From the NCBI GenBank assembly GCA_947630185.1, contig CANRGT010000009.1, forward strand, positions 4,996 to 68,995: a stretch of DNA of 64,000 nt. The letters run 5' to 3'. The notes below the pieces were generated by a model that did no database searches, was not told the DNA's origin, and worked only from the letters and a program-made list of their open reading frames with translations. Source of the stretch: an uncultured Clostridia bacterium. Its GTDB lineage: Bacteria > Bacillota > Clostridia > TANB77 > CAG-508. Positions 2,308 to 4,240 of the stretch are shown one piece after another. The stretch's first letter is position 1; every line of letters starts with the position of its first letter. Both the position numbers and the translations under genes were made by a program.

Positions 2308-2336
2308 TTGTATTTTATTTAATAATGTTGTATATT
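2308..2336 (+). promoter_or_regulatory. sigma-70-like promoter for the small-peptide transcript
   Basis: TTGTAT, 17-nt spacer, TATATT. The predicted start is next to CATAGGAAATG (about 2343). Confidence 0.45.
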
Positions 2337-2411
2337 GGTAAACATAGGAAATGATGATAAGCAGATGTGGTTTTGCCACCAATTATACGAATTATCGTAG
2401 GAGAGGTGGTG

Positions 2412-2531
2412 ATGTTTATGGTTAAAGTGATACTATTTTTTATAATATCCTTTATGTTATCTTTAACATTAAACGTTGCCTTGGCTACAGTTCTGTATAA
2501 GAACTGGGTTGATAAGCAACTACATAAATAA
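2412..2531 (+). CDS. 39-aa hydrophobic peptide, candidate type I toxin
   Basis: SD AGGAGAGG (2399-2406) lies 5 nt before the ATG. Peptide is MFMVKVILFFIISFMLSLTLNVALATVLYKNWVDKQLHK, one TM helix plus a polar/basic tail. Below the ORF-track length cutoff. Confidence 0.5.
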   Translation: MFMVKVILFFIISFMLSLTLNVALATVLYKNWVDKQLHK

Positions 2532-2620
2532 AAAAAGCTCACATCTGTAAATTTGACGATTTAGATGTGAGTTTTTATATCTATTTCGGCAAAACCACGT
2601 TTGTGGAATTGTCATTTCCT
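2530..2620 (-). ncRNA. about 90-nt sRNA convergent with the candidate toxin gene (candidate antitoxin; copy B of the AUAGGAAAUG module)
   Basis: Perfect promoter immediately upstream. Contains a CCACAAACGUGG hairpin and alternative pairing UAGAU/AUCUA, then a terminator with a U-run. Confidence 0.5.
2537..2576. terminator. bidirectional intrinsic terminator shared by the peptide mRNA (+) and the convergent sRNA (-)
   Basis: Stem CTCACATCT (2538-2546) pairs with AGATGTGAG (2563-2571). It is flanked by A7 upstream and T5 downstream. Confidence 0.65.
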
Positions 2621-2626
2621 ATATTT

Positions 2627-2655
2627 ATTATACTTGAGATTTAAAAAAATGTCAA
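2627..2655 (-). promoter_or_regulatory. consensus sigma-70 promoter for sRNA B
   Basis: On the minus strand: TTGACA (2655-2650), 17-nt spacer, TATAAT (2632-2627). Confidence 0.65.
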
Positions 2656-2732: not shown

Positions 2733-3365
2733 TTATCTTTCTTCTATGCTTTTTTCAGACAGTTTGACTCCTAATTCTCTAAGCTTTTTTCTTGTTTCAT
2801 CTGGATTAACGAAAGCTATTGTTGACATACCAAGTTTATCAGCTTCCTCTAATAAATTAGGTTTATCATCTATATAAACACAATTTTCTGCAGGATTAGA
2901 TGCTTCTTCTAAAGCTAATTGATAAATTTTAGGGTTTGGTTTACGAACTCCTACAATATGCGAAAAAACTCCAGATTCAAAGTATTGTAAAAAATGATAT
3001 TTTTCTTCTAGATAATCTATTCTTTCTTGAACATTATCAGATAAATATATTATTTCATATCCATTTTCTTTTAACTCTTTAATTATATCTACTGTTCCTT
3101 CAATTGGAACATACCCATTTAACCAAATTTGTGCCAATTCATCCATAGGAGCGCTAATTCCTAAAGTTTCTTTAGCTTGTCTCCAAAATTCCTCGTGAGA
3201 TATTTGATTTTCTCTATATGCAGTTCCTATCTTTCCTTTAAATACATCTGCTACAAGAACTGGATCTATATTCCATCTTTTACTTATTATATCTATTGCT
3301 CCTTTAGTTCCATCTGTAAAATAAACACCACCTAAATCAAAAATAACTGTTTTTATATCTTTCAT
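2733..3365 (-). CDS. HAD-superfamily hydrolase (subfamily IA-like)
   Basis: 210 aa with N-terminal VIFDLGGV (DxG/DxD motif I) and C-terminal YIDD motif. Confidence 0.75.
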   Translation of the reverse strand: MKDIKTVIFDLGGVYFTDGTKGAIDIISKRWNIDPVLVADVFKGKIGTAYRENQISHEEFWRQAKETLGISAPMDELAQIWLNGYVPIEGTVDIIKELKENGYEIIYLSDNVQERIDYLEEKYHFLQYFESGVFSHIVGVRKPNPKIYQLALEEASNPAENCVYIDDKPNLLEEADKLGMSTIAFVNPDETRKKLRELGVKLSEKSIEER

Positions 3366-3978: not shown

Positions 3979-4090
3979 AGTAATCTACTCTCCTTTATTA
4001 CTTATATCTGCTAGAATTATACTAAGTTTTATTTTTTTAGTCAAGTTAGATGCATAAACATCATTATAGATTTAGGATGATTTTTTTGCA

Positions 4091-4126
4091 AAAGAAAAAA
4101 TCAACCAGTTTAATTCTGATTGATTT
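4091..4126 (-). terminator. intrinsic terminator after tRNA-Gly
   Basis: Minus strand AAUCAAUCAG-aauuaaa-CUGGUUGAUU followed by UUUUUCUUUU. Confidence 0.6.
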
Positions 4127-4166
4127 TGTATCTACTATTCTATAAAAGTTCGAACAGATTTATCAA

Positions 4167-4240
<74 letters not shown>

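Follow-up and report, generated by a model that had tools for sequence, protein, structure and literature searches.

The closest described counterparts of the locus reported here are toxin–antitoxin (TA) systems of type I. The locus itself is a peptide gene with a convergent antisense RNA gene at positions 2305-2657 of a 64,000-nucleotide stretch (the window; 27% G+C) of contig CANRGT010000009.1 from an uncultured Clostridia bacterium (assembly GCA_947630185.1), and window coordinates are used throughout. In the par system (Fst/RNA I-RNA II) of Enterococcus faecalis pAD1 and in SprA1/SprA1AS of Staphylococcus aureus, as here, the promoters are convergent, the antisense gene lies on the 3' side and the loci are multi-copy (PMC7472228, PMC8594479). 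They also resemble our locus in an overlap, here a predicted one, at a shared terminator hairpin that excludes the open reading frame (ORF), a Shine–Dalgarno (SD) sequence sequestered by an intramolecular helix, and a peptide of ~30-37 aa in which a hydrophobic helix is followed by an aromatic or tryptophan residue and then a charged tail. The mRNAs of hok/Sok (plasmid R1) and aapA1/IsoA1 (Helicobacter pylori) resemble the full-length mRNA predicted here in their 5'-3' long-distance lock, their untranslatable state and the metastable pairings formed during transcription (PMC8594479, PMC6733600). The txpA/RatA and bsrG/SR4 pairs of Bacillus subtilis likewise consist of convergent, 3'-overlapping RNAs and a small membrane peptide, with duplex-triggered decay as the likely outcome. 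CD2517.1/RCd8 of Clostridioides difficile and its relatives have in common with our locus the Clostridia host, a small hydrophobic toxin with an antisense RNA, and a location in variable genome regions (cited in PMC8594479).

A comparison with over 100 relatives of the locus shows it to belong to a gene pair that is widely repeated and had no name before, in which a tiny membrane-peptide gene faces a small antisense RNA (sRNA) gene; the pair looks like a TA module, but its folding is unusual. The subsets of copies used were 81 aligned copies, sets of 93 copies and of 94 modules, 76 distinct ORFs, an alignment of 60 sequences, 70 distinct arm pairs and 14 subfamily representatives. The conserved module extends from one -35 element to the other (2305-2657 in the 81 aligned copies), and homology between copies ends on the left at about the -35 of the peptide gene (at ~2262 in one subfamily) and on the right at 2660-2665, just beyond the sRNA -35. 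An earlier note on this DNA had proposed a type I TA-like locus made of a small membrane peptide and a convergent antisense sRNA. This core idea is strongly supported by the relatives, through a coding signature, conserved promoters, a compensatory hairpin, SD sequestration and multiple copies in variable contexts, although details of the proposal fail. We consider it probable that the locus encodes a toxin-like peptide and its cis-antisense RNA; "toxin" is used below in this sense. For the fuller reading of the module, the comparison leaves the scales about level: a type I TA-like unit whose toxin mRNA would read through the hairpin by means of its 5' arm, close as a 5'-3' panhandle and be overlapped along its whole 3' untranslated region (UTR) by an excess of sRNA that mimics the arm. 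By analogy, the working of such a module would come closest to a cross between the par/SprA1 layout and the hok/aapA1 fold-back.

The ORF of 39 codons (2412-2531) read in the earlier note is present in the sequence. Its ATG at 2412 also exists, but the conserved start is ATG 2418, and because divergent members (...GAGGUGGUGUUUAUGG) keep the second ATG alone, the first being missing, the product is taken to be 37 aa long, with AGGUGG 9 nt before ATG 2418. The homologue search returned 41 proteins with a nearly invariant C-terminus (SLTLNVAL..VLYKNWVDKQLHK) and an N-terminal helix that is variable yet hydrophobic. A profile search of 1.8 billion representatives gave 26 matches, down to ~45% identity, and the members that it added at about this identity are 35-37 aa long (e.g., MLEIFMFLAIGLMISITINLALLYIIYIQWINKQIK). 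Pairwise differences among the 76 distinct ORFs at codon positions 1/2/3 number 21699/6311/24944; the ORF length is conserved, third codon positions vary at the invariant residues S, N, L, Y and K, and the substitutions interchange L, I, V and F, and codon position 2 is conserved. Judged by these codon patterns, the peptide is under protein-level selection. The AlphaFold model consists of one continuous helix over residues 2-37 (predicted local distance difference test score, pLDDT, 95), as for a small hydrophobic single-helix membrane peptide. No family match for the peptide was obtained in Pfam (E <= 10), NCBIfam, PADLOC or PHROGs, a literature search for its motif found nothing, and the exact-sequence look-up showed that the 39-, 54- and 75-aa ORFs are absent from the records of called genes. 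The 75-aa minus-strand ORF, which had been suspected to be an artefact, indeed looks like one, as an antisense frame of at least 70 codons survives in only 52 of 94 modules. The type I toxins of C. difficile are 50-53 aa long and adjoin clustered regularly interspaced short palindromic repeat (CRISPR) arrays or prophages; no similarity to them was found, none having surfaced in the peptide homologue or profile searches.

Both promoters of the module are conserved and, by their match to the consensus, the antisense one is much stronger. The minus-strand promoter proposed earlier (2655-2627) matches at 12 of 12 positions and is the sole perfect site in the region; its plus-strand partner (2308-2336) is below the strength detected by a consensus scan, yet its position is conserved in relatives. 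In the 81 aligned copies, the toxin promoter keeps its hexamers (TTGnTT/TAGACA at -35 and TATACT/TATATT, often with TG, at -10), the sRNA promoter keeps TTGAC(A/T) and TATAAT, and the spacers of both are variable. The mean consensus match is 10.7/12 for the sRNA promoter versus 7.8/12 for the toxin promoter. Conservation in these copies sets in exactly at CATAGGAAATGA on both sides, with CATAGG at the toxin side. The 6 nt between the sRNA -10 and the transcription start site (TSS) are conserved, whereas the equivalent stretch of the toxin promoter is not. Read on the plus strand, this conserved sRNA discriminator is AUAUUUAUUAUA and stands directly after the panhandle, where a plus-strand RNA would need a U-rich tail.

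The predicted sRNA starts with AUAGGAAAUGA, continues with a hairpin, CCAC-AAAC-GUGG (2606-2595), and UUUUGCC, and ends in a terminator followed by U7. Its 5' domain is more conserved than its terminator in the 81 aligned copies, and the 5' hairpin has compensatory variants (CCGU/ACGG in locus L078 and UACA/UGUA in L091, beside CCAC/GUGG). The minimum free energy (MFE) of the sRNA is -22.5 kcal/mol (z = -3.9). The strong hairpin reported between the two genes is real (14 bp; a terminator scan missed it because its loop is 16 nt), with compensatory changes in 8 of 12 pairs and 94% of cells paired in the 60-sequence alignment. According to the earlier note, both transcripts end at this hairpin; it serves the sRNA well, but is a doubtful end for the toxin mRNA, since a good U-tract follows mainly on the minus strand. 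There are 6.5 U per 9 nt after the hairpin on the minus strand versus 4.2 on the plus strand, and minus exceeds plus in 80 of 94 modules.

A second detail of the earlier note, pairing of the sRNA segment CCACAAACGU with AUGUUUAUGG at the start codon, turned out to be at chance level, being equalled by 56-62% of shuffled sRNA 5' domains. Among the 14 subfamily representatives, the sRNA shows no advantage in pairing with its cognate translation initiation region (TIR) over the other ones, whether the whole 5' domain (p = 0.62) or the GCC block (p = 0.86) is considered. With no preference for the cognate partner and a pairing that shuffles equal, a role of the sRNA as a trans-acting anti-SD or anti-start-codon RNA was rejected. 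Since the sRNA/TIR pairing is at chance, the module is without the complementary 5' ends by which par and SprA1 are defined (PMC7472228, PMC8594479). The sRNA 5' domain also pairs weakly with the hairpin 5' strand (-5 to -12.6 kcal/mol, p ~0.01-0.02), and this pairing is not relied on here.

Within the toxin mRNA, three conserved structures surround the translation start. The pairing of CCACC (2376-2380) with GGUGG proposed in the earlier note stands as part of an 8-bp helix of the MFE fold (2373-2380:2405-2412), with GGUGG placed at 2405-2409 and not at 2406-2410. In the 60-sequence alignment, 98.1% of cells of this anti-SD helix are paired and the changes are wobble-compatible; the register is the same in divergent subfamilies (e.g., GCCUCU:GGAGGU). 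The small leader hairpin shows compensatory changes from CG to UA (11 sequences) and from GC to AU (4 sequences), and in divergent loci it is replaced by CUCAA/UUGAG or CUUGAU/AUCAAG. The start-codon helix, 2408-2418:2470-2480, has 96.5% of cells paired in the same alignment versus 30-55% in slid controls, with little covariation, and accounts for the nucleotide-level conservation of the LNVA codons. The short form of the mRNA (2344-2581) has an MFE of -67.1 kcal/mol (z = -4.8).

One feature of the module was missed by the earlier note: a collinear inverted repeat, 2314-2377 versus 2588-2660. Owing to this repeat, the first ~35 nt of both RNAs are the same sequence and not complementary (AUAGGAAAUGA...GUGGUUUUGCC). 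As seen from the copies, the two arms evolve in concert. Both change together from GGAAAU to GAGAAU in four loci (L040, L042, L043 and L065) and from GUGG to ACGG in L078, and in divergent subfamilies both arms have GUAGAAAGUAAG for AUAGGAAAUGA and GUUGCC or GUUACC for GGUUUUGCC. The cognate arm similarity is 202, versus 135 +/- 13 for permuted pairs. Moreover, the transitions between the arms favour plus-strand G.U pairs by 265:44, the bias being present in 70 of 70 distinct arm pairs and in every subfamily, and the mean arm duplex is more stable on the plus strand (-43.4 kcal/mol) than on the minus strand (-31.2 kcal/mol), again in 70/70. For the plus-strand RNA 2344-2632 the MFE is -105 kcal/mol (z = -11.0), with a 32-bp panhandle, versus -82.9 kcal/mol for its minus-strand mirror image. 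Read most simply, the strand bias suggests that a toxin-sense transcript crosses the sRNA gene and that an RNA helix within it is under selection.

The 5' block shared by the two RNAs contains an AUG (AGGAAAUGA), which opens a 24-codon upstream ORF in the leader (2351-2425, plus strand) and a 31-codon ORF in the sRNA (2520-2615, minus strand); both were rejected as genes, as divergent subfamilies keep neither the AUG nor the reading frames. This block is purine-rich and resembles an extended SD complement (UAGAAAGGAGG).

The 5' arm has a further potential partner in the 5' strand of the hairpin. A duplex of 12-18 bp between the two can be formed in all 14 subfamily representatives, and the summed energy of the cognate combinations is -219 kcal/mol versus -178 +/- 9 kcal/mol for permuted ones (p < 5e-5). 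Two types of hairpin, CUCACAUCUGU and UAAACCAUUCUGCU, are each complementary to the same arm, and in L078 the change of the arm from AGCAGA to AGUGGA is matched by a change of the hairpin strand from UCUGCU to UCUACU (a compensatory C:G to U:A). In nascent transcripts without the hairpin 3' strand, the arm:hairpin helix is present in the MFE fold with 10-16 of its 12-17 pairs, and 9 of 14 representatives show it complete. Once the RNA is terminated or full-length, the helix lies 0-6.6 kcal/mol above the MFE in 13/14. The use of the arm as a second site for the sRNA terminator strand was also considered and rejected, being less specific than the intramolecular pairing (p = 0.055 vs < 5e-5). Given that the hairpin should terminate only the sRNA well and that its 5' strand can pair with the arm, the toxin mRNA probably reads through to ~2622-2632.

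From the parts, their conservation and their pairing potentials, all taken from the sequence and its comparison, we infer the transcripts, the read-through, the toxicity and the outcome of sRNA binding as follows. The weak promoter at 2308-2336 would produce the mRNA for the 37-aa membrane peptide, and its translation would be blocked in cis, with the anti-SD (2373-2380) covering the SD and the ORF-internal segment (2470-2480) covering the start codon. The near-consensus convergent promoter (2655-2627) would yield the ~95-nt antisense RNA, which would stop at the hairpin (2576-2533) with its U7. The toxin transcript would stop inefficiently there, since its 5' arm (2361-2374) could capture the hairpin 5' strand as this emerges from the polymerase and so let transcription run on to ~2622-2632. 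The arm (2344-2377) would then zip with 2588-2622 into the 32-bp panhandle, giving a closed, stable and untranslated mRNA in the manner of hok and aapA1. The sRNA, complementary to the entire 3' UTR, has a 5' domain of the same sequence as the mRNA arm and might compete for the 3' strand; once bound, it would unzip the panhandle and form an extended duplex, probably a substrate of RNase III, by which the mRNA would be inactivated. It is possible, though we hold it to be rather doubtful, that the antitoxin RNA is in this way a paralogue and sequence mimic of the toxin mRNA 5' end, that the arm acts first as a long-range antiterminator and then as a panhandle strand, and that the sRNA neutralises by competing for the panhandle 3' strand and not by pairing at the ribosome-binding site.

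Several observations weigh against this model. The plus-strand U-tract is fairly good in this window (UUUUUAUAU), so that many plus transcripts could stop at the hairpin here, and no canonical terminator follows position 2622 on the plus strand. The SD is paired in every predicted conformer, and none of them frees it for translation. The column-wise covariation of the arm:hairpin helix is weak (0.139 vs 0.133 for shuffles), although this measure is uninformative for the helix because the registers differ between subfamilies. The strand asymmetry of the arms could arise from separate constraints, namely the arm:hairpin pairing of the mRNA and the sRNA arm's own hairpin. It is also worth noting that the permutation tests use related sequences, so their p-values overstate independence.

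A first alternative enlarges on the model of the earlier note, that the toxin mRNA and the sRNA end at one bidirectional hairpin. The mRNA would be ~237 nt long and the overlap only ~50 nt, as in par/SprA1, the sRNA would act by loop-loop kissing at the terminators, and the arms would be no more than the remnant of a duplicated promoter and leader whose likeness gene conversion maintains. In its favour, the hairpin is conserved and strong, five U follow it on the plus strand in this window, the short mRNA folds well alone (MFE and z as given above), the loops are fully complementary, and the layout matches the Fst/RNAII and SprA1 class, with an overlap that excludes the ORF (PMC8594479, PMC7472228). 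However, gene conversion would give no strand bias, whereas the transitions are strongly skewed and the plus-strand duplex is the more stable one in all arm pairs; most subfamilies have a poor U-tract on the plus strand, every subfamily keeps complementarity between the arm and the hairpin 5' strand, the arm dominates the nascent folds, and no sRNA/TIR complementarity of the par/SprA1 type was found. We therefore regard this model as unlikely, if still to be reckoned with.

The distribution of the module bears on a second alternative, that the peptide is a harmless small membrane protein (e.g., one that regulates a membrane complex) whose expression a cis-antisense RNA adjusts. Among the GTDB species representatives (one genome per species), 332 stretches encoding a relative were confirmed, of which 80 were fetched for inspection. 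Almost all of the fetched loci come from metagenome-assembled genomes (MAGs) of uncultured Clostridia, from guts of human, rabbit, goat, deer and mouse. Counted among the 80 loci, several of these MAGs hold 2-4 copies, and some loci have two copies within 5 kb. A contig end lies within ~400 nt of the module in 22 of the 80 loci, as a repeat is expected to break assemblies. The neighbouring genes vary between copies (pseudouridine synthase, mfd, glycosyltransferase and valS; here cysE/HAD). Many small membrane proteins are benign, the peptide has no homology to any known toxin family, the conservation of its C-terminal motif YKNWVDKQLHK exceeds what pore-forming type I toxins usually show, and its toxicity is itself putative. 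Nevertheless, the multiple and tandem copies in unrelated neighbourhoods, the assembly breaks and the lack of a linked partner gene speak against such a protein, and the translation blocked in three ways and the stronger antisense promoter, together with the copy pattern, are typical of selfish type I TA loci, which makes a benign function improbable.

That the repeats act at the DNA level, as termini of a small cassette that can move or invert, or as a strand-specific hairpin of single-stranded DNA (ssDNA) such as integron attC or IS200/IS605 ends, is very improbable: 65-nt imperfect inverted repeats do flank a cassette with many copies at many sites, and folded ssDNA would tolerate G.T pairs too, so the strand bias alone is no proof of an RNA helix, but the repeats begin exactly at both inferred TSSs, their outermost parts are promoter hexamers with variable spacers and not conserved termini, no target-site duplication or recombinase was seen, the phage and plasmid DNA collections gave no match to the module, and IMG/VR gave a single matching locus. 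An invertible segment or a miniature inverted-repeat transposable element was also rejected, as the repeats have promoters at their ends and 93 copies include no chimeric or inverted arrangement of arm and flank.

Set against the described systems, the module falls outside the Fst, TxpA/BsrG and Hok families, because the features that define them were looked for and not found. Unlike par, it has inverted-repeat 5' ends of the same sequence and no DRa/DRb direct repeats giving 5' complementarity, its peptide has no PXXXG motif and no Fst Pfam match (with no conserved Pro/Gly motif in the alignments of 19 or 76 sequences), and its toxin mRNA probably reads through the hairpin. In hok and aapA1 it is the 5' region to which the antitoxin pairs and in which the full overlap lies, whereas the predicted sRNA of the module is encoded across from the 3' UTR and is a mimic of the 5' arm; there is also no mok-like leader ORF, no Pfam HOK_GEF match and no homology to these systems, and the hosts are Gram-positive Clostridia. 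The suggestion of the earlier note that the locus is a simple txpA/RatA- or bsrG/SR4-type pair did not hold, in view of the homologous inverted-repeat 5' ends, apparently selected to pair on the plus strand, the antiterminator-like arm and the poor plus-strand U-tract in most copies. The txpA/bsrG overlap would be of similar size to that of the module (~97 nt) if the toxin mRNA reads through. In those pairs, the two RNAs have separate terminators and overlap across the ORF's 3' part (PMC8594479), whereas the module has a single hairpin inside the overlap. The 3' end of its predicted sRNA reaches only the stop codon (~2526-2531), and there is no homology to the TxpA/BsrG families.

If confirmed, the module would represent a new and very widespread type I TA family in uncultured low-GC gut Clostridia, whose RNA regulation is almost unstudied. 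It would also join, in one unit, the Gram-positive 3'-antisense layout, the hok/aapA1 fold-back logic and a long-range antiterminator with an antitoxin that mimics the mRNA 5' end. Competition by sequence identity for the panhandle 3' strand, if true, would add a new regulatory logic to those of type I TA systems. The family moreover offers natural covariation data for RNA folding and a compact part for synthetic RNA devices, and is a repeat that visibly fragments metagenome assemblies.

Table 1. Coordinates of the features of the peptide/antisense RNA module in the window.
Feature	Position	Strand	Details
Toxin-mRNA promoter	2308-2336	+	TTGTAT (2308-2313)-17-TATATT (2331-2336); inferred TSS ~2344
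mRNA 5' arm (left repeat arm)	2344-2377	+	Block 1 AUAGGAAAUGA 2344-2354; block 2 GUGGUUUUGCC 2367-2377; conserved in all relatives
Antiterminator-like segment GCAGAUGUGGUUUU	2361-2374	+	Just upstream of anti-SD; pairs with hairpin 5' strand and loop, window 2534-2548
Anti-SD UUGCCACC	2373-2380	+	Pairs with 2405-2412 in MFE fold
Small leader hairpin UACGA-AUUA-UCGUA	2386-2399	+	MFE fold
SD region GGAGAGGUGG	2400-2409	+	AGGUGG 9 nt before ATG 2418
Peptide ORF	2418-2531	+	37 aa, MVKVILFFIISFMLSLTLNVALATVLYKNWVDKQLHK; alternative start 2412 gives 39 aa
ORF-internal segment UAAACGUUGCC	2470-2480	+	Pairs with start-codon region 2408-2418 (MFE folds)
14-bp hairpin, 16-nt loop	2533-2546/2563-2576	both	sRNA terminator; on + strand competes with arm pairing
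Right repeat arm	2588-2622	+	Would-be 3' strand of 32-bp 5'-3' panhandle with 2344-2377 on read-through transcript
Predicted antisense sRNA	2622-2526	-	~95 nt; inferred from promoter and terminator
sRNA promoter	2655-2627	-	TTGACA-17-TATAAT, 12/12 consensus positions

The region 2300-2665 is intergenic and lies between two minus-strand genes, a frameshifted cysE-like gene (1495-2032) and a HAD hydrolase gene (2733-3365). The cysE-like serine-acetyltransferase gene is spread over two frames, a 102-aa N-terminal part (1724-2032) with an out-of-frame tail and a 73-aa hexapeptide part (1495-1716), and is probably a frameshifted pseudogene. An identical split is present in an independent metagenome contig, in which only the 73-aa piece is called as a gene. 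A terminator-like site on the minus strand (2249-2263), consisting of GCGCCUUAAUGGUGU and then U9, coincides exactly with the left homology limit of the module's subfamily and could shield cysE against antisense read-through from the module or the HAD gene. A search within the window found no paralogue of the module elsewhere in it, and Rfam gave no gathering-score match over the region, only matches at chance level (E >= 0.4, 1900-2900).

Module pairs in the same orientation, 1-2 kb apart, occur in L018 (1424, 2501), L069 (2501, 4272), L071 and L073 and indicate that the module has been duplicated locally. A second conserved element is present ~200 nt upstream of the module in at least 19 loci (e.g., L012-L015, L018, L022 and L030), a palindrome ACGATTGATAYAAWWATCAATCAA adjoining ...GUUGUAGAUAGCUACGACGUCCGCUCCA. 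It is located at 2170-2340 in L015, where a terminator-like hairpin on the minus strand follows, and at 3290-3350 in L004; the element has no Rfam match and was not found in this window at <=3 mismatches. The contexts of L004 (3240-3300) and L005 (3240-3360) are otherwise identical, and the point at which they part is immediately downstream of the module. An intact tRNA-Leu(CAG) is present there in L005, whereas L004 diverges beyond the first ~11 nt at the tRNA 3' end, and the replacing segment carries the palindromic element and a gene for a 985-aa metallophosphatase; the difference looks like an insertion or replacement at the tRNA gene. In the window, the stretch 4061-4196, which comprises the 3' part of a minus-strand tRNA gene (4170-4240) and ~110 nt downstream, is 74-85% similar to near-tRNA stretches in several module-bearing loci, such as L016, L018, L060, L066 and L067. 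In many cases the module lies within 0.2-2 kb of tRNA genes, including those for Leu, Gly and Thr.

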